Made by a program: the position numbers and the translations under genes. This document shows, in pieces, positions 6,087-62,177 of a DNA stretch of 64,000 bases (position 1 is the stretch's first letter; every line of letters begins with the position of its first letter). The notes beneath the pieces are model-generated. The model saw only the letters and a program-made list of their open reading frames with translations. It was not told the origin of the DNA and made no database searches. Source of the stretch: an uncultured virus (IMG/VR IMGVR_UViG_3300045961_000160) (taxonomy: Duplodnaviria > Heunggongvirae > Uroviricota > Caudoviricetes); IMG/VR virus record IMGVR_UViG_3300045961_000160; one strand, written 5' to 3'.

Positions 6087-6095
6087 ATAATATAC
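6087..6095 (-). promoter_or_regulatory. putative late-promoter motif GTATATTAT
   Basis: The same motif precedes several - strand structural genes; here it lies 3 nt before the ATG. Confidence 0.55.
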
Positions 6096-6124
6096 AAAAA
6101 ATAAAGCAGATTAAAAAATTATAC

Positions 6125-8229: not shown

Positions 8230-11200
8230 TATCTACCAGAGTTTTCACGTTCAATTGCAAGAGCAGGATCAGCCATTTTACCAGTAAGCCCATAAAATTT
8301 CATAATACTATTCAAGTATTTATTGTCATTTTTTTGCTGACCGTAATATGGTCCTGCTGCTCTTGTATAAACTTCTTCTTGACCTGTAGCTGTATTATAC
8401 AACTGTGTAGTTAAATCAACCATTGTAGTCAAGTTTCCTTCTCCTAAAGGAGATTTCAAAGTAACAATGTTTCTTATTGTTTTAAATGCATCAGTAGGTT
8501 CAAAAGTTTCAACTTCTCGTTGAACACGCAAAGCCAATCTTAAATTTTGCAAATCCCAATAATCTTCAGAATCAAATCTTCTACCTGCTCTTTCTGTGTA
8601 ACGAGAATGAATCCAAGGTAAGTTAGGAAGACCTGTGCTGTTATCTAATTTATTAAATCGGTGTTTGTCATCTGGATCATAACTTGTTGTAAAATCATCA
8701 TCGTCATCATCATTAAACATAATACCACCAACAATTGCCATTAAAAGAATTTTAGCAGCTATTCCAGCAGTAGTATGTAACAAACCAATTTTTGCATTGT
8801 AATCCAATGTATTAAACTTACCAGTAAAAATTTGTTTTAATGCTTCAATGGCACCAATTACAGATCCAGTTTCAGCTCTTCCTAAATAAAGATTTACGCG
8901 CTTATCTGCTTTACCAGTTAATGCATTTTTAAATGAACGCAATGCACCTTTTCTTTTAGTACTAAATGCATATCTGTCTTGGAACATTGACGGAAAGAAC
9001 TTCAATAAAGCAAATGCATAACGGCCAAGTATGTGTCTATAAACATCCGGTTCAGAAAATTCATTTGCCTGACCAACTGTTTTTAACAGGACACCTTGAT
9101 GCATATTCATAAGCTTTTTAATTTGCTCTCCAAATATTACATTTCCATCTGAGTCATATGAAATAGAATATTCAGCAGGAACCCCAGCTTTTGTTTCAAT
9201 TCTTCCATTTACTAACTCAACTGCATTATACAATGGTGTTTTTTTACCATTAAGCTTAAAACTATGATTGTGTAAGAGTGCGTAAAAAGCATGAACTGCT
9301 ACAGATTCTTGCAACATTTTTCTGTCAAAAAATAAATGCTCTCCTTTAAATACAGATTGAGCAACTGTCTTGCTACCATAATCCCCAACATCTTTCTTTT
9401 CACGGTCTGGAATACCATCCATAATGTCAAGAAGTTGCAACTGGAGATTCTTTTGTTTGTTTGTAAATGAATCAGTAACAAGCTTGGCAACTGTAGAAGA
9501 AGCTATCGCCTGTGATGCAGCCAAACTTACTGGAGTGAATAAACGTTTGTCAACTGATTTTAAAGTCAACATAATTTTACCACCAAAGTAGTTGGTTAAT
9601 GATGCTTGCGGGTTTAAAGCAAACGCAGCTCTAGATAACAAACCTTGCATTTTTCTCAAAACTAAGTCTGCTGTTTTAACAGTAGAGCTTCTGTTTGTTT
9701 CAATTTGCTTTCCTTTAAATTGCTTATCAATAATTGAGATAATTTTATTTAAACGGTTAGTTCTTTCAACATCAGTTTTTTTAGTAAACCTGAGTGTATT
9801 TTTTAATCTGTTTTTTAATGACAAAACCGTAGATGGAATTGTTAAATCCTCCACTGTTGATTTGAGCATGTTTGCAAAACTATTTCTTTTTCTTAAAGCT
9901 TTATAATACTCAATTGAATACAACTGAATACCCATTGACTTAATAATATTTCTACTAACTTCATTTTTAGGAAGTCTGTAGTTACCTGAAATTGGTCTTG
10001 ATTGTGTATTGTACAAATCTGTTTCCGGATCACCGGCTGCAATCCCTAATTCAAAATCATCTGGTTGATTTCTCCAAACATTTAAAAAAGATTGAACCCT
10101 TCTTCTTAAATAACCTCTACTTGTTTTATCTTCTAAACTACTTTTTCTTAATGCAGGATAAAGCAAATATCTTTTTTGAGCATTATCTAATCCTTTTTGA
10201 TTATCCAGGAATTGATTTTTTACATACAACATGAGGTTAAATAAATCTCTGTTTTTAGAAAACATCAATTTGTAATCACCATTAATGTAAGTGGCATCTT
10301 TTCCATTTTCTCTTGGTAAAAATTGACCACGGTTATCAATATTGGCTAACACCAGTTTGCCATTTTGATCAATATAATCTCTTTCAACAAGTACTGTTTG
10401 ATACTGTGGTTTAACAGTACGCTTCATATAAGTAATGTTTGGTACTCTTGGTACCCCATCAACTTCTATGTATCCTATAAGTGCGCCAGTTGCTTTAGAA
10501 TAAACATTCTTTTTCTTATAGTACTTTTTATCAGTTGGCTTAGTGTATTGCCAAGCTGCAGATTTTCTAAATACATCAATCTCACCAATGATATTGTTTT
10601 GTGAATCACGCTCAACACCCATATCAGCATAATGGTTATTATAAAACCATTTTCCAAATGCCGGGTTAACAGCAATCAATTTATTTACAAAACTAACATC
10701 ATCAAGTACTTTTGAAAAATGACTCTGGTCAATAACATCTCCTCCATCAATATCCAAACCTTCAAAATTATCATAAATAAATTTTGATAAAAGATCATGT
10801 GAATCTTGAACTTGGTCAATCAATGACATGAAAGTATTCACATAAACATTAGTTGCTTCTGTGCTTGTAATACTTCTTAATTCAACATCAATTGCTTTAA
10901 CCCTTTCAACTTGCATAGGAGTAATACCAAAAGCCATTAAACCGCGCTTATAGCGGTCCATATAGTCATTATACTCATCTTGATCAGCTTGTGTCCTAAA
11001 GGCATTGTAGTAAGCGTAGTAATCAATTAAATCATTGAGTCTTGAACTCTCTTCTTTGGTTAATCCAGAAAGAGTAAATAACTGGCGTTGTGCCTCAACA
11101 ATTTGTTCATGTAATTCAGTAATGCGGATTTGTTCATTTTCACTTAACAAAGTACCGTCATACTGACCAGTAGTATCTTTGTTAGCTTTCAAAATGGTGT

Positions 11201-20300: not shown

Positions 20301-23300
20301 TAGCATACTGAGCAAATACATTATCAGCAATTGTAAGCTGATCATTTTTTTCATTAAATAAAGACTCAGATTTTTTTTCAAAATATGTCTTCAAAGCCAA
20401 ATCAATTTTCTTTTTTGTTTTGGCATCTAATATGCTATTTAATGTAAATGAATCTTCTACACCTAATTTTAACAATTTGTCCTTTAGGGAAGGATCAGAT
20501 TCCAAAATGTCATCAAACATATAAAGTGATCTTCCGCGCTCTAAATAAGCAGCATCAAATTCAACTTCTTCACCATTATTAATGGCATCAACAATTGCAT
20601 TTAATCTAGTTATTCTTACTAGCTCTGCTTCAAGGTGACGGTAAAATTGATCATACAGAATAGTTGATTTTTCATTTTTATCATACGCCTCTGTAAATAT
20701 CTTTTCTACATCTGCTTTTGTAAATACTAATTCATTTTTAAGGATTACTCCATTTCTTTTAACTGGCGCATGTACAGTTAATGAAGTTGACTTAGCTTCA
20801 GAACGTAAGATCTCCTGCTTTCCTTCTAAAGTTAAATGGAAATCAGAAATGAACTTTGTTTTTTCATCAGATGAGATAGCGGAAATACCTTTGTCTTCTG
20901 TTTCAAAAATAATTTTAGAACCAGATAGGTTTTCTGCAGTAATCTTGAAATTTTTATTTCTTGTTCCATATACACCCGGATCTTTTGATTCAAGGTTAAA
21001 CATGTTGATTAGCCAAGGAGAAGCTGCAGCAAATGGATTGTTATCCACATCAAACATTTCTAAACCTGGAACCTTAATTAACTCATCATAGCTTGACGCA
21101 TTATTTAATGCATTGATCATGATTGTCAAAGAAGAGTTCAAAGATTTTTCACTTTGCTTGTCTCCTGACGCATTTACACCCATGAAGCCAGCATTCTCAT
21201 CAGAGAACATAAATTGAAGCTCCTGTAGTTGTTTAAACCAACCATTCAGTCCAATTTGTTTCTTAGTTTCAGTAGAACCTTCTTCACGGTAGGAAAAATC
21301 AGTAAACAAATCTTTTAATGAGTAAACAACTCTATCAGATTCCTTAACAGCATTTTCTCTGTTAAGCATTGATTCCAGTATGTTATTTATAATCCCTGGC
21401 TCAATACCTAATGATGCATTACCGTTAATTAAAATATCAGCAACAACTTCATCTTCCACAAGATCAATACCTAAGTTTCTAAGGAACTCAAATGGTTTTG
21501 CAACAGCTTTGTAAGTTAAGCGGGTATATTTTGTTCCTGCCGGTGCCTCATCTTTATTGGTAATAAATGCAGGACCGTTCCCAGAAATCAAACCAAATCC
21601 TTTTTCTGCATATTCTAACGCAAGATCAGTAGGCAATAAAAAATGCACACCACGATCAGCATTATATCCATAGTTGTCATTTGTTTGAGAAACAAAAACA
21701 AAATTATCTCCCCAATCACTAGCAATTCTTTGAGTTTGTGATTTAGATCTTCCAGACCTTGCTTCATAAGTAACTTGTTTTTGGTCATTAACTTTTTTCT
21801 CCAAAATGAATTCTCTAAGAATCAAATCAGATTTATTCATTACTTGCCAAAAAGCTAACCATTGTTTTTGCTCTTCAGTTGAAATCTTAGGATTAGTCAA
21901 ATCACCAAGCTTCAATAAAATCTGTTTGATTTCATAATCAGTTTCAGCTGCTTTAACAAGCTTGTGGTACATTTCTACACGGTCAGTTGTATTGCGCAAA
22001 ATCTTACTTGTTTTAGCAAGCATCTGTGCAAATGGTTGTAGTTTTTTAATACCTAGTGAATTGACAAGTAAGGTTCCTTTACCGTTATTTGAGTATGCAT
22101 GAATAGAACTAAGCAACTGTTTAGTTTGAGCATCAGTTAATTCAGCTAATGATTTTTCTGTTCCAGTGCGATCAAAAAGAAATTGAAATCTTTCTTCATC
22201 ATTCATTTCATCAGTCAAATCAAATTCCGGATTGGTTACATTGATTGTGCTGTAGTTATTTAAATACAAACCAATCATGTTTGTATTTGTATCAGTTCCT
22301 AAATAGTCTAATGCATTTTCAATAGATCCAAAATTGTCTAAGACTTTTGATAAAGTATTGTATGCAAAACTAGGTGTTTCACCTTTTTTAGGTTTCAATA
22401 AGTCTCTTTGTTGTGTAAGTCTATTTTTGACATAAGTAAGTGCATATGTTAAAACAGCAGGGTTATTAGCAACAGCAAATACACCGTACCCATTTATGGT
22501 GCCGGCAGTTTTATTTAACTTGTCAATTTCAGACATGATTTGTGCATGCTTCTTAGAATCAAGTTTAACAGTAGATGATTCAATCAACAACTTTACAACT
22601 TTTAAATTAGTTGCGCGGTTAGTGTTTGCATTAATACCATAGTTAATAAATTCACTTATAAGTGAATTAAATGACTCCATACTTACTTGAACCTCTTCTA
22701 AAGAAAAATTTGTGTCAGGTGTAGAAATCTCAGATGACTTAAATAATAATTCTGAAGAAGCCTGTGGATTAAACTTGCTTATATCAATGTTACCTTCATA
22801 GAGTGCATTAAACATAGCATTAACAACACCGTTAGCTTGATTTAATGCTACTGCTTCATTATATGTCATGCTGGCACCAAACATACCTTTTAGTAAGTTC
22901 CATACCTTTTCAAAAAATTGACCAACACGGGTAGAATACTTTGATGACAGTTTACCTTTAGAAGCAGCAAAATCTTGAAATCTTTCAGCTAAGTATTCTT
23001 CAATTTCTAAGTCACTAGCATCAGAAAACGCAATTGTCTTTTTGACACCTTTTACAATAACTGAAAACTTGCCTGGTGTTTTTTTAACTTCAGCATACAG
23101 TGCTTCGCGCTCTTCTTTGGTAAGAACCGCCTGTGTAAAAGCATGAAATACCTCATGGTAAACATCTGCCTTGTTTGATCCAAGGTACATGTTTATGGCA
23201 CCTTTGATGTATTCTCCTAAAAAGCTAGGTCCTTTTTCATGAATTTCATCAAAATAGTTAATAGCCAATTCTTTGGCAAGCGGGTTTGATTTAATCCACT

Positions 23301-40922: not shown

Positions 40923-40930
40923 TAATATAC
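40923..40930 (-). promoter_or_regulatory. putative late-promoter motif GTATATTA preceded by a T-tract
   Basis: Intergenic, upstream of the first cargo gene; matches the shared motif. Confidence 0.55.
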
Positions 40931-40964
40931 AAAAAAAATTTTACTATTCTTAACTATTAAATAG

Positions 40965-47503: not shown

Positions 47504-47995
47504 TTATGGGTTTATGTCAAGCCTTGAATTGTAAGTTACAGAAAGGCAACGGCTCCAATTCTTTACAAAATACTTTGACGCTCTCCTTTTAAATTGCTGT
47601 AACGGATTAAATCCAAACAACTTTGTATGTTTTACTACTGTTCTTAGTGTTTTATTCATAAATACAATACGCATCAAGTTGTTATCCGTATCCCAATTTT
47701 TGTGATATGTTCTAACACCTGTTGCTTTTGATTTAGCATAATCCACCGGTCTATTTCTAGGTTTACCTGCATTGTTGATTAAGATAACACCAATGTTTTC
47801 TGGAAGAACTACACCATAAATATTATTCATAGTTTCATCTGCCATGTTGCTATTGAATGTTCTCATAATCTTAATAAGATCACTTTGCTTGAGGTTATGT
47901 TCTGGATGTTGTTTATTGAAGTCTCTAACTTCTTTATACGCAATCACTTTTCCCTTATTCTCCGTGACCCTAGGTTTATGCAAATCTACCTTCAT
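47504..47995 (-). CDS. IHF/HU-like DNA-binding protein
   Basis: Basic 163-aa protein; helical N-terminus, then GVVLPENIGVILI...F.P...FKR; occupies the IHF position of crAss-like tail modules. Confidence 0.55.
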   Translation of the reverse strand: MKVDLHKPRVTENKGKVIAYKEVRDFNKQHPEHNLKQSDLIKIMRTFNSNMADETMNNIYGVVLPENIGVILINNAGKPRNRPVDYAKSKATGVRTYHKNWDTDNNLMRIVFMNKTLRTVVKHTKLFGFNPLQQFKRRASKYFVKNWSRCLSVTYNSRLDINP

Positions 47996-48027
47996 ATAAT
48001 ATACTAATTTCTAGCCAAAAATACAAA
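47996..48027 (-). promoter_or_regulatory. putative promoter TTTG-N20-TATATTAT abutting the ATG
   Basis: - strand TTTGTATTTTTGGCTAGAAATTAGTATATTATATG; the 16 bp at 47995-48010 are identical to 52868-52883. Confidence 0.6.
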
Positions 48028-48033
48028 TTATAA

Positions 48034-48064
48034 ATAAAAACAAACCCCAGATTGCTCCGGGGTT
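48034..48064 (-). terminator. intrinsic terminator after the collagen-fibre genes
   Basis: - strand AACCCCGGA-GCAA-TCTGGGGTT (GNRA loop, one G-U pair) followed by TGTTTTTAT. Confidence 0.8.
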
Positions 48065-48070
48065 CGCTCT

Positions 48071-48100
48071 AGTCAGCCACAATAAACCAACCTTTGTGAC
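48071..48100 (-). ncRNA. candidate 3'-UTR stem-loop/antisense element with loop AGGUUGGUUUA
   Basis: GTCACAA/TTGTGGC stem; the loop and 3' flank are complementary to the leaders at 58767-58788 and 62126-62143. Confidence 0.4.
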
Positions 48101-48115
48101 ATTTTTTACAACTGG

Positions 48116-49201
48116 TTATGCCTCTAGGAAAGCCATCAAGCCATCTAAACGTACTTGAAAGCCTCCAACTTCTTCTTCATTTCCTGCATTACAGGAAAAT
48201 TTAAATTTCTCTGATGTTGAATAAAATTGTTGTAAGTTTTGCAAATTTACAATTGGTGCCGATAATAACCTACTGTGAATTTTTGCATTAGGTGCATCGG
48301 TTGCATAATTTGTAAAAACTGGTGTTGATTGATTTGCTACCACATTTGAAATCAAAAAGTTTAAAGGTGAAGTATGATAAGCATTATCACCACCTTGCTC
48401 TACAGATTCTTCACTATCTTTTACTAAACCAAATGTCAAAAGACCTTGCTCATTGATTGTTACACTAAACATTGTAGTAAGCAATGTGCTATTTGATCCA
48501 GTTGATATTGAACGCTGTCCAATTTTCCATCCCGCTGGATTTACATAAACATCATCAATGTTGCCATCAACTGGTTGATTCCATACTGCAGTTGGAATTA
48601 CATTTTGAGGATTGATGCCGTCACTATTAAATCTTAAACTACCATTATTTCCAGGTTGTAACCATACTCCACCCGGTCCAGTAAAAGGAGCCTTTTGTAA
48701 AACAGGATTATTGGTACCATCATAAAAATAATATGTATCAATATTAGATCCATATTTCCATTCAAGTGCACCTCCTTTTGATAGATCTTCTAAAGGAATC
48801 ATTGCCACCCCTTTAAAGTAAATGATTTTACCAATACGTCTTGCTTTTGGTTTTGGCAAATAACCAGACCCAACAGCGTAGTGATCAAACCCTAATAAAT
48901 CATGCCAGCCTGTATCTACTAAACTTCCAGATGGTCCTTGTGGTCCTTGAATACCCTGGGTACCTAAAGCACCTGATGTTCCAGGATTACCTTGAATACC
49001 TTGCGTACCTTTTGTTCCTTGTATAGATGGACCTTGGATACCTTGTATACCTTGTATGCCCTGAACACCTTGGATACCTTGCGGACCATTGATGCCTTGC
49101 TTACCTTGTAAACCATCATAGCCACGCGGACCTCTTAATCCGATTGGTAATGCTTTACAGTGTGAACCATTACAAGTATTATCCTTACACTTTGTACACA
49201 T
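48116..49201 (-). CDS. collagen-like fibre protein with N-terminal Cys/His motif and C-terminal globular domain
   Basis: MCTKCKDNTCNGSHC, then G-X-Y repeats (QGIQGVQGIQG), then a beta-rich domain. Confidence 0.8.
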   Translation of the reverse strand: MCTKCKDNTCNGSHCKALPIGLRGPRGYDGLQGKQGINGPQGIQGVQGIQGIQGIQGPSIQGTKGTQGIQGNPGTSGALGTQGIQGPQGPSGSLVDTGWHDLLGFDHYAVGSGYLPKPKARRIGKIIYFKGVAMIPLEDLSKGGALEWKYGSNIDTYYFYDGTNNPVLQKAPFTGPGGVWLQPGNNGSLRFNSDGINPQNVIPTAVWNQPVDGNIDDVYVNPAGWKIGQRSISTGSNSTLLTTMFSVTINEQGLLTFGLVKDSEESVEQGGDNAYHTSPLNFLISNVVANQSTPVFTNYATDAPNAKIHSRLLSAPIVNLQNLQQFYSTSEKFKFSCNAGNEEEVGGFQVRLDGLMAFLEA

Positions 49202-49211
49202 AATTAATTTT

Positions 49212-49895
49212 TTATCCTAAAATTACCACTCTTACTCTACATGTAACACCGCCTCCGGTTAAACCAATTGTTATTGTACCAGTTGATTCATTTACAGTTA
49301 TGTTTGATATGTATGCAGGTTTAACTAATTCCCAAATACCAGTAGGTGTTGGGTCAGAAGGCATAGCCCAAAGTTGAATATGCCAATCAACCATTGAACT
49401 TAATGTATCAGCGGCTAAACATCCTGCAGGAATATCTGAACAAAGAATAAGTTCTTCTCTTGTAATTGTAATTGTTGTATCATCAAAATTTGTTAAATAC
49501 TCATTAACAAACTTAAATGCATTCACACCAGGGATTCCTTGTTCTCCACGTTCACCTTGAGGTCCAGCATCACCAGCAGGTCCTGTAGGTCCTGTAAGAC
49601 CCATGGCACCGTCAATTCCATTAGTCCCATTAATTCCATTAGCTCCAGGTAATCCAGGATTTCCGGTAGGACCTTGTGGTCCCATTGGTCCTGTTGCACC
49701 CTGAATACCAAAACCACCAGCAACTCCAGGAATTCCTTGAGCCCCTTGTGGTCCTTGAGGTCCTGTAAGTCCAGTATCACCTTTGTCACCCTTATCCCCT
49801 TTATCACCTTGATAACCGCGAGGTCCTCTTAGTCCTTTAGGAAGAGCATTGCAATGTGGATTGTTACATGTATTATCACCGCATTTAACACACAT
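49212..49895 (-). CDS. collagen-like fibre protein with N-terminal Cys/His motif
   Basis: MCVKCGDNTCNNPHC, then roughly 100 aa of G-X-Y repeats. Confidence 0.85.
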   Translation of the reverse strand: MCVKCGDNTCNNPHCNALPKGLRGPRGYQGDKGDKGDKGDTGLTGPQGPQGAQGIPGVAGGFGIQGATGPMGPQGPTGNPGLPGANGINGTNGIDGAMGLTGPTGPAGDAGPQGERGEQGIPGVNAFKFVNEYLTNFDDTTITITREELILCSDIPAGCLAADTLSSMVDWHIQLWAMPSDPTPTGIWELVKPAYISNITVNESTGTITIGLTGGGVTCRVRVVILG

Positions 49896-49897
49896 AA

Positions 49898-50980
49898 TTA
49901 ATAAGTTTTAAATAGTGTAAACATTGAACTCATGATTGCATTAGCTGCATCTACACTTTGCCATTCAGCTTTAACTTCTAAAGTATTTAACACAGTTGTA
50001 TCAAATAAAGTTGATTCAATTGTAGTAAAATTAAACCCTTCAAAAGCATTATTTGAATCTTTATTGTAAATAAATTTACCACTTGTAGCAATTGATGCTG
50101 TTGCTGCAGCTCCAATTGCACGTACCGTAAAATCAATATCTAATGAAAAATCTTTACCTGTAATTTGAGGTAAAACCATAGATGGCGTAGAAGCTAATTG
50201 ATTACCATTTGCTAAAACAGTAATTCTTAAAGTTTGATTGTTTGCGCAAGACACTCTTCCATGCAATGTTCCTTTAAAAGAATCACCTCTTTGAAAAATA
50301 TTTGCAGGTACTGACAAAGTTCCTTCACCTGCACCTAAAAGATCATTTGGTGAATTAGCATTTGTTATTGTAACTGAATCATTTGTTTGCGCAAATAACC
50401 CTGCAGAAGATGGTTCTGCACTACCTGCAGGTCCTTGTACACCTTGTGTACCAATTCCTACAAGACCTTGTGTACCTTGTAGGCCAATAAGACCCTGTGT
50501 GCCTTGCAAACCAGTAAGCCCTTGAATACCATCTGCACCAGTTCGGCCTTGTATTCCTTGTACACCCTGTGTACCTTGAATTCCTGTTATTCCTTGCACA
50601 CCTTGTGCACCAGTTGTTCCTTGAGGACCAGGGGTTAATTGAATATTGCAAATAAAATCCACAGTTAATGCCAATGCTTCTTGCATTGAAGAACCTGCAG
50701 GGATAATTACTTCAGTTCCACATAAGATGTCTTCTATAGTAACCAATCCTTGTTTTCTGCAGAAATAGTCTGTAATCTTAGCAATTGCTACTGCCAAATT
50801 ATCATTTTGCTCAATAACAACGTCTGTACCGCATTTAATATCTAAACCGGTATAAATTGTACACTGCGCATCTGTAATTTCAGTACATGGTTGCGGAGTA
50901 GGGCATACAGGCGTAGAACAATCTACGCAAGGTGTTGTACTTGAAATTGGGTGTGCTTGTTGACATGTAGGACAACTCAT
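49898..50980 (-). CDS. Cys-rich collagen-like fibre protein
   Basis: Cys-rich N-terminus, duplicated DI.CGT.V.I...AI/L..I/VD..C unit, G-X-Q collagen run and beta-rich C-terminus. Confidence 0.8.
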   Translation of the reverse strand: MSCPTCQQAHPISSTTPCVDCSTPVCPTPQPCTEITDAQCTIYTGLDIKCGTDVVIEQNDNLAVAIAKITDYFCRKQGLVTIEDILCGTEVIIPAGSSMQEALALTVDFICNIQLTPGPQGTTGAQGVQGITGIQGTQGVQGIQGRTGADGIQGLTGLQGTQGLIGLQGTQGLVGIGTQGVQGPAGSAEPSSAGLFAQTNDSVTITNANSPNDLLGAGEGTLSVPANIFQRGDSFKGTLHGRVSCANNQTLRITVLANGNQLASTPSMVLPQITGKDFSLDIDFTVRAIGAAATASIATSGKFIYNKDSNNAFEGFNFTTIESTLFDTTVLNTLEVKAEWQSVDAANAIMSSMFTLFKTY

Positions 50981-50991
50981 ATCTTAAAGTA

Positions 50992-51699
50992 TTATAATTG
51001 TTGTGTAAATAAATTTGCTGAACCAATTGTAATATTGCAATCACCACATTTTACAACTACTCCATATGTAACCATTACTAAATAAAGTCCGTAATAATCA
51101 AGAGGTGTTAATTCTGGGTGAGCAGTTTGCAAATAATTAAACATGATTCCTAAACCACTATAACCATTAAATGCTGAAGCTTCAATAAGCTCTAGGTCAT
51201 TTAAATCATCATAGTTAACAGGTACCGACAATGAACTTAATTCTGATGCTTCTATCCATGCATTGTAGGCACTCATAAAGTCTGTATTACAACATGGAGG
51301 TGTAACACCGCCAATAGCTGTTACAAGGCAATCTAATTGCGCTACAGATAGTTTATATTCAACACAACAAGGATACTTTGCAGTTTGTCCAACTGGTGTA
51401 AAATAATTAACTACTGCCGCTAACTTAGAACAATCTCCAATAAAGTAAAAACCTCTAGGATCGGTGCAATCAGGACAACACAAACGCGTATTATTAGTTG
51501 CAACAACTCCGCTGTTTAATACAGTATACAATGCAGTATAAATTGTATGCACTGTTGTAACCGGTGTGTTTCCAATTTGAGGACCAGAATAATCAGTTCC
51601 TAAAATTGAAAAAGCTTGATTCAAAACATGAATCAATGGATTAGCACACAATGATGCATTGCATGTACAAGAAGTTTTATTGCATTTAGAACAGCTCAT
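50992..51699 (-). CDS. Cys-rich putative structural protein, paralog of 51702-52364
   Basis: Shares C.NP, LN.GV, CCP.C, CC..Y, CC.T.F and GVVVKC..C...IGSA with the neighbour. Confidence 0.7.
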   Translation of the reverse strand: MSCSKCNKTSCTCNASLCANPLIHVLNQAFSILGTDYSGPQIGNTPVTTVHTIYTALYTVLNSGVVATNNTRLCCPDCTDPRGFYFIGDCSKLAAVVNYFTPVGQTAKYPCCVEYKLSVAQLDCLVTAIGGVTPPCCNTDFMSAYNAWIEASELSSLSVPVNYDDLNDLELIEASAFNGYSGLGIMFNYLQTAHPELTPLDYYGLYLVMVTYGVVVKCGDCNITIGSANLFTQQL

Positions 51700-52868: not shown

Positions 52869-52877
52869 ATAATATAC
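52869..52877 (-). promoter_or_regulatory. putative late-promoter motif GTATATTAT
   Basis: Intergenic; 16-bp identity with the motif at 47995-48010. Confidence 0.6.
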
Positions 52878-52907
52878 TAATTTTAATTTAATTTTCCTAA
52901 TCCATGA

Positions 52908-53843: not shown

Positions 53844-54404
53844 TTAACAAAGTTTACAAGAGAATTTATCTAATAATTTTTTTGCATAGTTGTAAAGCAC
53901 CATAGCTTCTTCTGCTTTTAAACAATATTCAGCTTTGGCTTTTGCTGCATCAATGTAACCTGTAATTTCCATTAATGCATTGAACTTATCCTCAGTTTCA
54001 GGAATTGGTTCACACGCGCTAAGTTTTAATTTACACCACTCTTCTTTTAACTGTTTTCTTAATGCAGTCACACGTAAGTGATTATACTCAACATACATTT
54101 TATCATGTGGAGACAATGCATATTTAATGACATATATTCCATCAGGCAAAGGGTAAAACTCATCACCGCATCTATTTGTTTGAACTTTTAAATTACAAGC
54201 AGACAGATTTAAAATAAAGTTTGCTCCTACAGCTGGAACCGTTGTGTCATTAAATGTAACACAATCCTTATATCCAGGAACTAACACTTGAACTGTAGGA
54301 CAGATGTAAGGCATAAGGGGATCATAAATACTTGTGTCTTCTATTCTTAGAACACAATCAGTCATTATATCCGGGATGTTTAAGCTTAATGAATTTGTTG
54401 CCAT
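53844..54404 (-). CDS. tail hub-like structural protein (start revised to ATG 54404)
   Basis: LPDGIYVIKY motif and helical C-terminus (A..LYNYAKKLL). The ORF-track start at 54455 lies inside a terminator. Confidence 0.6.
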   Translation of the reverse strand: MATNSLSLNIPDIMTDCVLRIEDTSIYDPLMPYICPTVQVLVPGYKDCVTFNDTTVPAVGANFILNLSACNLKVQTNRCGDEFYPLPDGIYVIKYALSPHDKMYVEYNHLRVTALRKQLKEEWCKLKLSACEPIPETEDKFNALMEITGYIDAAKAKAEYCLKAEEAMVLYNYAKKLLDKFSCKLC

Positions 54405-54415
54405 GTTTTGTATTT

Positions 54416-54457
54416 TAAAAAAAATGGAGAATAGAGAAAAACCTCCATTCTCCATTT
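54416..54457 (-). terminator. intrinsic terminator after the auxiliary capsid gene
   Basis: Long inverted repeat AAATGGAGAATGGAG/CTCTATTCTCCATTT followed by a T-run on the - strand. Confidence 0.8.
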
Positions 54458-56056: not shown

Positions 56057-56086
56057 TTTTCTTTTTTTTAATTAATAAACAATACT

Positions 56087-56117
56087 ATAATATAAGAAAA
56101 TATTTCTAAATAGTCAA
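56087..56117 (-). promoter_or_regulatory. putative promoter TTGACT-N17-TATATT(AT)
   Basis: - strand TTGACTATTTAGAAATATTTTCTTATATTAT, upstream of 56056. Confidence 0.65.
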
Positions 56118-57770: not shown

Positions 57771-58763
57771 TTATTTACTCCACAAATCTTCAACCTTTGC
57801 CATAAGAAGATCTAACATATCTTCATTGGCTGGGTTTTTCAGATATTCCATAACATCTGATACATTACGACCAAGCATTACATTTTGTGATGCTTCATGT
57901 AACATACCATCTGGTTTGGCAATAATGTACTTGTAAAAACTAGCATCTTTGATGATTGCTTTAATTTTCAAGTCTTCTACACTCATCTTAGCATGATCAA
58001 TAAATGTTGTAGCACAACGCTTCAAATTATTGTCATATGCTTTACCATTAATGTATTTATCCATGTTACTATAGATAATACCTGGTAATGTTTTATTAGT
58101 GTATTGTGCACTATTACCATCAATGTTTTTAGCAATATAAAACAGTTTTCTTGGTTCTTCTTCAGACAATTCTTCAAGTAATGCACCTGCTTTGTTTTTC
58201 AGCTTAGTTACACTTACACTTGTAGCAATTGTATCAATTTGTCTATCCAAGTACCATTTTTTACCACTACGTTTGCAATCTTCATAGGTTGGTGCCACTA
58301 ATGAAAAACCACCTGCTTCAATTGCTTTAACAATAATTAAGTGATCCAGATTATTAGCCGGATCTAAAACTTGATCATCATTTCCAAGTTTCAATAATAC
58401 TTTACCCCACACATCACTATTGTCTGGTGTAAACATTTGAACTTTTGACCAAAACTCTTTATCATTTGGATCAAGATAGTTAAATGCGCGTTCTGCTTCA
58501 AGTGTAGCTACTGTTTTGCGGATGTCATCAATAATAGCTTTTTTCTTTTCAGTGTCTTTGATTTGCTTAATTTCTGGAGCAAATTCATTTAATCCTGACA
58601 AGTATCTAGCTTTACCGTTTTGCTCAACTGCTGCTAATGTTTCTACTTGAAATGTGTTTGGGAATACTACATAACCGTAGTTTTCTAATCCCATGTTTTC
58701 CTGTGTAGGATCGCAATAAGCTTTAATACTTACCTTTCCTACTGTTTCTAATTTTGTACTCAT
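57771..58763 (-). CDS. conserved crAss-like head-module protein (gene-75-like)
   Basis: 330 aa between the MCP and ring-protein genes; YLSGL...FW...LDP and C-terminal LG.NV....EYLKNP.N signature. Confidence 0.65.
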   Translation of the reverse strand: MSTKLETVGKVSIKAYCDPTQENMGLENYGYVVFPNTFQVETLAAVEQNGKARYLSGLNEFAPEIKQIKDTEKKKAIIDDIRKTVATLEAERAFNYLDPNDKEFWSKVQMFTPDNSDVWGKVLLKLGNDDQVLDPANNLDHLIIVKAIEAGGFSLVAPTYEDCKRSGKKWYLDRQIDTIATSVSVTKLKNKAGALLEELSEEEPRKLFYIAKNIDGNSAQYTNKTLPGIIYSNMDKYINGKAYDNNLKRCATTFIDHAKMSVEDLKIKAIIKDASFYKYIIAKPDGMLHEASQNVMLGRNVSDVMEYLKNPANEDMLDLLMAKVEDLWSK

Positions 58764-58787
58764 TTTGTTGGTTTATGTGAATGCTGA

Positions 58788-58795
58788 CAAATATA
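58788..58795 (-). promoter_or_regulatory. Bacteroidota-type -7 promoter element TATATTTG
   Basis: Exact TAnnTTTG consensus, 24 nt upstream of ATG 58763 and just after a terminator. Confidence 0.6.
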
Positions 58796-58825
58796 ATAAA
58801 AACAGCTCCATTTCTGAAGCTGTTT
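58795..58825 (-). terminator. intrinsic terminator
   Basis: - strand AAACAGCTTCA-GAAA-TGGAGCTGTTT followed by TTATT. Confidence 0.75.
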
Positions 58826-60807: not shown

Positions 60808-62121
60808 TTACTGTCTAGAGAACAAAGATCTACCGCTGCGCTTAATAGGTTCGCGTTTCCCTGGTGTTCTTCCAGCATTGCTATTTTGATCTCCTATACC
60901 TGTAGAAGATGCATTTCTTGACGCTTCTTCTGTTCTTAGTTGTCGCGCTGTACTAGCATTAGCTGTATTGGCACCAAGTTGTTTGATAGAGTTACGGTAT
61001 TGAACCGGATCTGCTAACAACCAAAGTGCTTCAGCAACCAATGAAGGATTTGCTTTTTCGCCAAACTGATGCTGCTCAAGTAAGTATCCTAATGCATTTG
61101 TAGGATTACCTTTTGAATCTTGATACTTGCTATTATCAGTCAAACCATAATAAAGCATTGTTTGTACTTTATTATTCAATGGAATACCATTCAAGTTGTT
61201 ACTGTTTAATGTATTGTAAACAACATCATGGTATTTTTTTTCCATTTGTGCTTTGCGAGTTTGAGCTGCTTGTTGGTCTTGCAATCTTTTCTCAATTACT
61301 TGAGCTTGTTGCGCATCCAATTTCGGCTTGTATCTTTCAGCATATTTGGCCAAATCTCCGCGATCTTTGAGAACATTGATTTCATCTTCAATCTCTTCAG
61401 CTGTACCAAAACCAGAAAGATTTAAATACTGTCTAGCAATAACCTCTTGGTCATCTTCTTTAGACACATCTAAATCAAAAGTTTCTTGTGCACGCGCTAA
61501 TTGACTAAAGACTGCTTTTATGTCTTGTCCGCCATTTAATGCATAATGCACAACGGCTTGAACTTCTTGAGGCAACTGTTGAAACAACTGAACTGGTGCA
61601 TTAGCAGCAACTTCATTTGTTTGTGAATCAATGTTAGCCTGAATTAGTTCTTCAAAGTCATCCACTGTATAGTCTTCAATTGGCTTTTCCAAAGTACCAT
61701 CTTCTTTTGCAAATGGTTGTAAAATGCCTTTGTCAACTAATCTTTTAGTTGCTTCTACCATTGCATCTTTAACAAGTCTTGGGCGACCTCCAGGATTTTT
61801 TCCTGCTTGCGCTGCTGGATCATCATTGTCTTCTTCCTCTTCTTCATTGTTCAAAGGTTCATCAACAATGGCAGCTACAACTTGTTTTGCTACATCTGGG
61901 TTTTGCAAACTTTCAGTGTCATCATCATCAATTTCATCAAGAAATTTCATGTCAACTTTATCTGATTTGAAAACATTAGGTTTTGGTTCGGAACCTCCGC
62001 TAATCACTGAACTAGCTGAAGGGATTCCTAACAAATCATCCAAGTTTTCAAATTCAACCTCTTCTGCCGCTGCAGGAGAGCCATTTGCAGCTTCTAAGGC
62101 TGCTTTTTCTGCTTCTGTCAT
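60808..62121 (-). CDS. acidic scaffold-like head protein (crAss gene-77-like; start revised to ATG 62121)
   Basis: D/E-rich disordered N-terminus, helical core, basic C-terminal tail; lies between portal and MCP. Confidence 0.7.
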   Translation of the reverse strand: MTEAEKAALEAANGSPAAAEEVEFENLDDLLGIPSASSVISGGSEPKPNVFKSDKVDMKFLDEIDDDDTESLQNPDVAKQVVAAIVDEPLNNEEEEEDNDDPAAQAGKNPGGRPRLVKDAMVEATKRLVDKGILQPFAKEDGTLEKPIEDYTVDDFEELIQANIDSQTNEVAANAPVQLFQQLPQEVQAVVHYALNGGQDIKAVFSQLARAQETFDLDVSKEDDQEVIARQYLNLSGFGTAEEIEDEINVLKDRGDLAKYAERYKPKLDAQQAQVIEKRLQDQQAAQTRKAQMEKKYHDVVYNTLNSNNLNGIPLNNKVQTMLYYGLTDNSKYQDSKGNPTNALGYLLEQHQFGEKANPSLVAEALWLLADPVQYRNSIKQLGANTANASTARQLRTEEASRNASSTGIGDQNSNAGRTPGKREPIKRSGRSLFSRQ

Positions 62122-62147
62122 AATTGTTGGTTTAATACTGACTATAA

Positions 62148-62177
62148 ATAATATAAGCAAAAATATTTAATTGTAAA
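62148..62177 (-). promoter_or_regulatory. putative promoter TTTACA-N16-TATATT(AT)
   Basis: Intergenic, upstream of 62121; shared motif. Confidence 0.55.

Follow-up and report, generated by a model that had tools for sequence, protein, structure and literature searches.

Does the hairpin that stands between the last tail-fibre gene of this phage and the terminator of the fibre operon act, as an RNA, on the leaders of two other operons of the same genome? An earlier note had suggested as much, naming as targets the genes that start at 58763 and 62121. The window (the whole 64,000-nt stretch of DNA analysed) comes from an uncultured freshwater phage whose gene content is crAss-like; the runs that contain the phage are freshwater, sediment or aquatic metagenomes, and all window genes from 8226 to 63970 are encoded on the - strand. 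The portal gene matches phrog_6547 and the major capsid protein (MCP) gene phrog_11589; the MCP is 22-35% identical to those of crAss-like and Cellulophaga phages and matches crAss001 gp32 weakly (E = 0.007), and giant ORFs of 1637, 2184, 3612 and 2024 aa come after the collagen-like fibre genes. By this gene content (MCP, portal and giant virion-protein genes) the phage would belong to the crAss-like phages, which are among the most abundant phages known and whose post-transcriptional control is uncharted.

Table 1. Features of the proposed RNA element, its candidate targets and the signals around them (window coordinates, except in the last row)
Feature	Position	Strand	Remarks
Promoter-like -7 box of next operon (gene 47504-47995)	48016..48023	-	TATTTTTG; just 3' of the terminator
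Fibre-operon intrinsic terminator	48027..48070	-	15-pair extended stem (48070-48037), core CCCCGGAG/CUGGGG, then U-run
CUGAC box	48072..48076	-	directly 3' of the hairpin, sharing one C; complementary to near-clade leader GUCAG
Anti-leader hairpin	48076..48100	-	basis: sequence, fold, conservation in relatives, stem covariation
Last tail-fibre gene	48116..49201	-	361 aa; collagen-like fibre repeats; phrog_819, phrog_5073 (tail fibre)
330-aa gene, candidate target	57771..58763	-	downstream of the major capsid gene
Leader of 330-aa gene	58764..58788	-	GUCAG 58788-58784, UAAACCAAC 58775-58767, AAA-AUG
Promoter-like -7 box, inferred	58788..58795	-	TATATTTG (TAnnTTTG type); directly after terminator 58800-58825
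437-aa gene, candidate target	60808..62121	-	between the portal and major capsid genes
Leader of 437-aa gene	62122..62143	-	AGUCAG 62143-62138, UAAACCAAC 62134-62126, AAUU-AUG
Promoter-like -7 box, inferred	62158..62165	-	TATTTTTG; upstream of the 437-aa leader
Third start-overlapping site, elsewhere	G002 26616; G003 38550; G006 51775(-); G008 83715(-); G010 12228		

The 3' end of the fibre operon is built as the earlier note had described it, with a hairpin after the last fibre gene whose loop and CUGAC box precede the terminator (Table 1). The stop codon of the fibre gene occupies 48116-48118 and the hairpin begins 15 nt later; its 7 bp are made by a 5' stem GUCACAA (48100-48094) and a 3' stem UUGUGGC (48082-48076), which enclose the 11-nt loop AGGUUGGUUUA (48093-48083). 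As - strand DNA the order is GTCACAA, AGGTTGGTTTA, TTGTGGC, CTGAC (48076-48072) and then the terminator CCCCGGAGCAATCTGGGG with its T-run, and the + strand at 48071-48091 reads AGTCAGCCACAATAAACCAAC. When 48025-48118 (-) was folded, exactly the hairpin and the terminator were returned, at -30.8 kcal/mol (z-score -4.06), and one of 200 shuffles was equally stable. The terminator is of the rho-independent type, having a G+C-rich stem-loop and a U-run, and is 98.2% paired over 16 sequences. Lying downstream of a stop codon and sharing the intrinsic terminator of the mRNA, the hairpin is placed as a 3'UTR element; in relatives it follows the last ORF by 10-45 nt, and in the sequences examined these 10-45 nt hold no conserved promoter word that could serve the hairpin itself. 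A search of 48017-48106 against Rfam 15 gave best scores of 18-23 bits, against gathering thresholds of 47-100.

Conservation is closest among genomes whose 330-aa protein is at least 61% identical to that of the window, which we call the near clade. The hairpin was kept in 11 of 11 near relatives examined, behind differing fibre genes; the set comprised seven loci around a 223-aa protein, one of them the window's own near-identical contig, and five records. It always lay between the terminator and the last fibre ORF, an ORF that ranged from 165 to 525 aa across records. Its stem reads GUCACA/UGUGGC or UGUGAC and its loop (G)A(G)AGGUUGGUUU(A/C)A, with CUGAC next in every case (the window and 10/10 other near-clade records). 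On the target side, both leaders read GTCAG-N(0-13)-(T)AAACCAA(C)-N-ATG in 13 of 14 loci, L006 having one of the two, and five additional near-clade records agree with this pattern. GUCAG and CUGAC form a second complementary block, present on both sides in the near clade only.

In a distant clade (~45% protein identity) a hairpin with the loop UUUGUUGGUUUU again stands ahead of a G+C-rich terminator, and the loop core GUUGGUU is kept on quite different stems: CACUGG/CCAGUG, AAGUAGG/CCUGCUU, AGAGGG/CCCUCU, GUUCUGUGU/AUACAGAAC and GUCAGG/CCUGAC. A covariance model built from 10 distant-clade sequences scored 61-88 bits in 18 loci (its 10 training sources and 8 close kin), 31.8 bits in L074 and 19.7-23.6 bits in the window, L087 and L082. 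G012 to G017, with new stems again, were added from searches of whole records and inspection by eye. Over 16 distinct sequences, in an alignment that had itself been fitted to the covariance model, all seven pairs of helix 1 vary on both sides, 88.7% of its cells are paired (67.4% in shuffles) and its covariation score is 0.656 against 0.240 when shuffled (reached in 0/500), slid controls giving 0.07-0.16; GTTGGTT is in the loop of 15 of the 16. An alignment of both clades together in MAFFT misaligned the loops and was excluded. Judged by its sequence and that of its relatives, the element is a real, conserved, structured RNA module, whose stem covaries across relatives while the loop and leader motifs are kept.

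Conservation also carries the match between loop and leaders. Homologues of both target genes in the distant clade have (A)AACCAAC-type words just before the ATG, sometimes twice. In the subclade of L032, L039 and L072 the A/C box is absent from both leaders; there, the loop of L032 is mutated to UUUGUGAGUUUUU, and in L039 and L072 the terminator comes 25 nt past the stop codon with no hairpin between. Leptolyngbya phage Lbo-JY46, the nearest cultured MCP relative (26% identity), has neither hairpin nor box, and we therefore found no cultured model; tblastn with the 330-aa protein returned no match in the phage collection. This joint loss of loop and box probably represents one evolutionary event plus one outgroup. 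What was observed directly on these genomes is the structure, its conservation, the complementarity, and that loop and box are present or lost together.

Within the window, the 9-mer TAAACCAAC stands 3 nt before one ATG (58775-58767) and 4 nt before the other (62134-62126), the two leaders being as the earlier note had quoted them, and it is found at none of the remaining listed gene starts. It occurs four times in all (21234(+), 48083(+), 58767(-) and 62126(-)) against a shuffle mean of 1.05, and 2 of 100 shuffles reached four, so that its count within the window is, taken alone, only mildly unusual. Both leaders are predicted to be essentially unstructured (-0.5 to -4.7 kcal/mol). When the element was paired by duplexfold with 40 start regions of the window, the two leaders ranked 1 and 2; in a sliding scan, however, sites that are not gene starts reached energies as low as those of both leaders. 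With 14-19 ORFs at each of 14 loci that are phylogenetically non-independent, loop-leader duplexes placed the 330-aa leader best in 11 loci and below third in none, and the 437-aa leader in the top 4 in 13. Among the matches listed by a scan of the collection with the 14-mer loop word, which are mostly chance, 6 of 80 loci scored 20-25 bits with the covariance model and none scored like the true element, and model searches at loose thresholds gave false hits, two of which were the reverse complement of 437-aa-type leaders. That the loop-leader match is more than chance rests, then, on its conservation in relatives.

Swapping elements and leaders between clades gave a mixed picture. Near elements pair with near leaders at -23.2 kcal/mol and with distant leaders at -14.8, shuffled elements reaching -10.8 +/- 3.3. 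Duplex energies in the distant clade are modest (-10 to -19 kcal/mol), and distant elements pair better with near leaders (-17.5) than with those of their own clade (-15.4). Within a clade, own pairs have no real gain over swapped pairs (-18.4 vs -17.9). The loop core and the box are nearly invariant across genomes and, because these core words do not vary, no genome-by-genome compensatory change can be demonstrated. The covariation of loop and leaders that the earlier note had proposed to check thus extends to the two being lost together but not to own pairs exceeding swapped ones.

The start regions of the window are A-rich and poor in Shine-Dalgarno sequences. Of 40 starts, one is preceded by an SD-like tetramer and 27 have A at -3, and A makes up 50% of the 20 nt upstream; compared with what PMC7366714 describes, this composition points to a host in the Bacteroidota. 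This Bacteroidota-like initiation was seen even though the nearest cultured MCP relative infects a cyanobacterium. Both candidate targets are the first genes after promoter-like TAnnTTTG boxes, a -7 consensus taken from PMC7366714. TAnnTTTG is not enriched in the window (90 matches vs 107 expected), so that the promoters are called by their position only. GTCAG of the 330-aa leader overlaps with the presumed -7 box; it may lie upstream of the transcription start, in which case it would be absent from the RNA. Another promoter-like word, TATATTA(TAG), lies shortly before several - strand genes of the window (62145-62155, 56085-56095, 52875-52885, 47996-48006, 40925-40935 and 6095-6105) and in distant relatives takes the form TATATTATAGTA; it may be a phage-specific promoter element. 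At 47995 the word abuts the ATG, and either the start call or the role of the word is doubtful there.

We favor the possibility that the 3' end of the fibre mRNA is a base-pairing RNA which acts in trans on start regions that lack Shine-Dalgarno sequences, and give it a probability of about 0.5. In such a scheme the last 75 nt of the fibre-operon transcript would form a conserved two-hairpin module, in which the first hairpin would present the G/U loop (A)GGUUGGUU(U) and be followed by a short spacer and the intrinsic terminator of the operon. The putative seed would be the loop core GUUGGUU, an exact antisense of the A/C box (A)AACCAAC, and the putative target that box, which in two window operons and, in the near clade, in one or two more elsewhere stands no farther than ~25 nt from the start codon of the operon's first gene. 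The module would act either while still joined to the fibre mRNA or after processing into a separate 3' fragment, its loop nucleating pairing on unstructured leaders without a Shine-Dalgarno sequence; in the near clade the 3' stem could open and pairing continue as far as CUGAC:GUCAG. As fibre transcripts accumulate, translation of the tagged genes would be expected to fall, and the stability of their mRNAs might be altered. We infer from the sequence comparisons that the module is an active RNA and that the two RNAs pair; the sign of the effect is likewise conditional, lower translation being likely because the duplex would fall inside the 30S footprint. The earlier proposal of a 3'UTR-derived sRNA seeding on the two leaders can accordingly be kept as far as a conserved 3'UTR hairpin with a loop antisense to both initiation regions is concerned, but its activity as an sRNA is a further, conditional step.

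Action in trans is favored because an intrinsic terminator, at 54422-54457 (-), stands between the 330-aa leader and the hairpin. This terminator has 16 pairs, overlaps the ATG of gene 53844-54455 and is conserved, being kept in near and distant relatives ~3.3-4.7 kb past the start of the 330-aa gene. It also counts against pairing in cis, in which the 3' hairpin would bind the 5' leader of its own read-through transcript and the resulting mRNA loop would protect the message or tune its translation. The 330-aa leader and the hairpin do lie on one strand, 10.7 kb apart, with GUCAG near the presumed 5' end and CUGAC beside the terminator. Such a transcript would nevertheless have to pass the strong conserved terminator as well as internal promoter-like words; moreover, the 437-aa operon ends at terminator 58800-58825, where there is no anti-leader element, and further sites are found on the other genome arm. 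We consider cis pairing improbable.

Other explanations do without pairing. The two motifs could be independent, the hairpin being bound by a protein or protecting the 3' end and the box being a signal for SD-independent translation or for stability, so that their complementarity would be a by-product or give rise to weak competition only. A-rich start regions of which 1/40 is SD-like, the suitability of an A/C-only box for an unstructured leader, and the fact that neither motif varies enough to prove pairing are all compatible with this. We nevertheless regard it as rather unlikely in view of (i) the exact antisense match over 7-10 nt in every genome examined, which is unlikely by chance; (ii) the second antisense block in the near clade; (iii) the loss of loop and box together; and (iv) the want of any GUUGGUU partner for the box in 16S rRNA. 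The last point bears as well on another candidate, in which the box would be an enhancer pairing with 16S rRNA and the loop an rRNA mimic: the 3' tails of Bacteroidota 16S rRNA read ..GCGGCTGGAACACCTCCTTTCT (80 loci), and GTTGGTT was found once in the 80 loci, at the 3' edge. Because Bacteroidota 16S rRNA lacks GUUGGUU in all but that locus, rRNA mimicry is unlikely, within the scope of 16S and of a host that is itself inferred.

It is also conceivable that a phage regulator binds GTCAG-N-AACCAAC as an operator in double-stranded DNA, since several promoters have the word a short way downstream and its inverted copy is ~60 nt upstream of the promoter that serves the next operon. All sites are near TAnnTTTG-type boxes, and either orientation would suit a DNA-binding protein. 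GTCAG and AACCAAC, however, stand at a variable distance from each other (0 to 13 nt), as do the -7 box and GTCAG (0 to 25 nt); the inverted copy is always in the loop of a covarying stem, which a DNA site would not need; and the strand is fixed, with the box sense at starts and antisense in the 3'UTR. We attach little weight to an operator, and similar facts speak against the earlier alternative of a + strand decoy for a protein that binds the leaders, which we disfavor as the orientation is constant, the neighbouring genes are all on the - strand and the stem covaries as RNA. Finally, an ordinary pre-terminator hairpin might resemble two A/C-rich leaders by chance. The 9-mer count is only mildly above expectation, and duplex scans give comparable energies elsewhere in the window, yet across clades the hairpin, its loop and the box are all kept at orthologous places, with a covarying stem, and coincidence is hardly credible.

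If a base-pairing 3'UTR RNA acts in trans, its targets may be more numerous than the two in the window. Beyond the region of the window, near-clade genomes have one or two extra box-bearing starts, of which one is situated on the other genome arm. In 5/5 records, and in G001, the nearest record to the window, a small ORF (MSExTNQ..) located ~8 kb upstream of the 437-aa leader has at its start the word ATGTCAGAA-N-ACCAACCAA; in G001 this third site (9273-9290) lies ~8 kb past the window's right end and overlaps the start codon. The small ORF comes after a terminator and a TAnnTTTG box. A second ORF with this word is found on the other arm in G003 (4668, -) and G006 (94671, +). In each of two complete genomes, the 7-mer is found between -45 and +30 relative to the start in four genes (~1 expected), an enrichment that is moderate only. 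Two of the four tagged genes of G013, a complete genome of the distant clade, carry the box twice, before and after the ATG (22768-22987(-) and 92088-93105(-), with boxes at -12/+14 and -18/+21).

These further sites lead to a broader model, which we advance tentatively and consider possible but doubtful: the A/C box would be a phage-specific start-site tag on the leading gene of every operon read by the host RNA polymerase, and the single hairpin of the fibre operon a master antisense switch for them. If this were true, all tagged operons would be retuned at once, in translation or stability, when the last late transcript is complete; such a timing circuit, made of RNA only and conserved across a large family of uncultured crAss-like phages, would operate in a host phylum without Shine-Dalgarno pairing or Hfq/ProQ. 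The narrower proposal of the earlier note, that the element couples fibre transcription to head assembly, is speculative, given the extra sites outside the window and two targets for which our searches gave no function. For the 330-aa protein, PHROGs, Pfam, a PDB sequence search, Atlas, Foldseek and VIA-align yielded no function; the sole match was that of ~60 C-terminal residues of its model (residues 263-329), which resemble the RecA C-terminal domain (VIA Z = 9.5, rmsd 2.0, 61 residues aligned). For the 437-aa protein, our searches likewise found no function, and its position and a largely helical model of low confidence (mean pLDDT 61.4) make it at most scaffold-like.

There is precedent for base-pairing RNAs that derive from 3'UTRs, CpxQ, SroC, DapZ and MicL being bacterial examples. 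The phage element resembles these in lying at an mRNA 3' end, in sharing the intrinsic terminator, in its short conserved seed and in having initiation regions as putative targets. It differs from them in that its genome is that of a lytic-type crAss-like phage and its putative targets are leaders of the phage's own operons, and in carrying its seed in a hairpin loop and not in a single-stranded stretch; its presumed host group, besides, has neither Hfq nor ProQ (PMC7366714). By analogy we would class it as most like a 3'UTR-derived base-pairing sRNA with a loop-borne seed. MalH is a further 3'UTR-derived base-pairing sRNA (PMC8081044).

For a setting poor in chaperones and lacking Shine-Dalgarno sequences, the closest known case would be GibS of Bacteroides thetaiotaomicron, as described in PMC7366714. 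According to that work, the presumed host group is without Hfq or ProQ, GibS pairs with initiation regions without either protein, and it binds in vitro without a chaperone (PMC7366714). The likeness lies in the regions around start codons without Shine-Dalgarno sequences and in the presumed host phylum; the difference is that GibS, as depicted there, is intergenic and host-encoded, with a long unstructured 5' seed, whereas the phage seed is 7-11 nt in a loop at an mRNA 3' end. We found no sequence or structural relation between GibS and the phage element, and no match in Rfam.

Recognition from an exposed hairpin loop is familiar from the antisense RNAs CopA/CopT, RNAI/RNAII and Sok/hok, and YUNR-type words are known from antisense RNA loops. 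The phage element would likewise begin recognition at an exposed loop, and this loop holds UUGG, UUUG or UUUA. Most such antisense RNAs lie opposite their target and are fully complementary to it, whereas the phage element is 10-14 kb from its targets, of which there would be several, and matches them over 7-10 nt, to which the near clade adds 5 nt. Phages P1/P7 encode an RNA, c4, that blocks the ant leader of their own genome, and the phage element resembles c4 in being a phage RNA directed at a leader of the genome that encodes it. Control by base pairing is also what the element shares with the phage-encoded sRNAs covered by a 2025 review (PMC12197685), the searched text of which describes lambdoid, Stx and Pseudomonas examples that regulate phage or host genes; in that text the words 'crAss', 'Bacteroid' and 'capsid' have 0 occurrences. 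A literature search judged mostly by title found no description of a small RNA in crAss-like phages. If the pairing is real, the element would offer a compact and testable case of RNA-RNA control of initiation without Shine-Dalgarno sequences, and a regulon of several leaders served by one loop.

Two metatranscriptomic libraries contain the phage (X5 and X20) and were examined as assembled contigs, which are blind to RNA ends and small RNAs. Contigs of X5 differ in depth across the region, from 5.7 to 137, whereas the depth of the DNA runs is flat (7.5 and 18.4). A drop in X5 depth from 83.7 to 5.7 near 62085, inside the 437-aa gene but close to its start, is a weak hint that fits a promoter before the 437-aa leader. 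Among the X5 contigs listed, none covers 47956-48100 and one ends at 48101, where the hairpin has its base; DNA contigs continue past this point. The contig end may reflect a graph branch between the conserved module and the variable fibre gene, a structured 3' end, or size selection.

The hairpin-terminator is constant where the genes before it are not. In a comparison of the fibre genes at 48116-51699 (-) with L082-L087, close relatives vary in the number and size of fibre genes before the conserved hairpin-terminator. The module may be a boundary for the exchange of fibre cassettes and, were the pairing real, it would be a conserved marker for the cassette end behind differing fibre genes. 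Contigs of other samples, DNA and RNA alike, branch within the collagen-like repeats, with joints or loose ends at 48990-50630.
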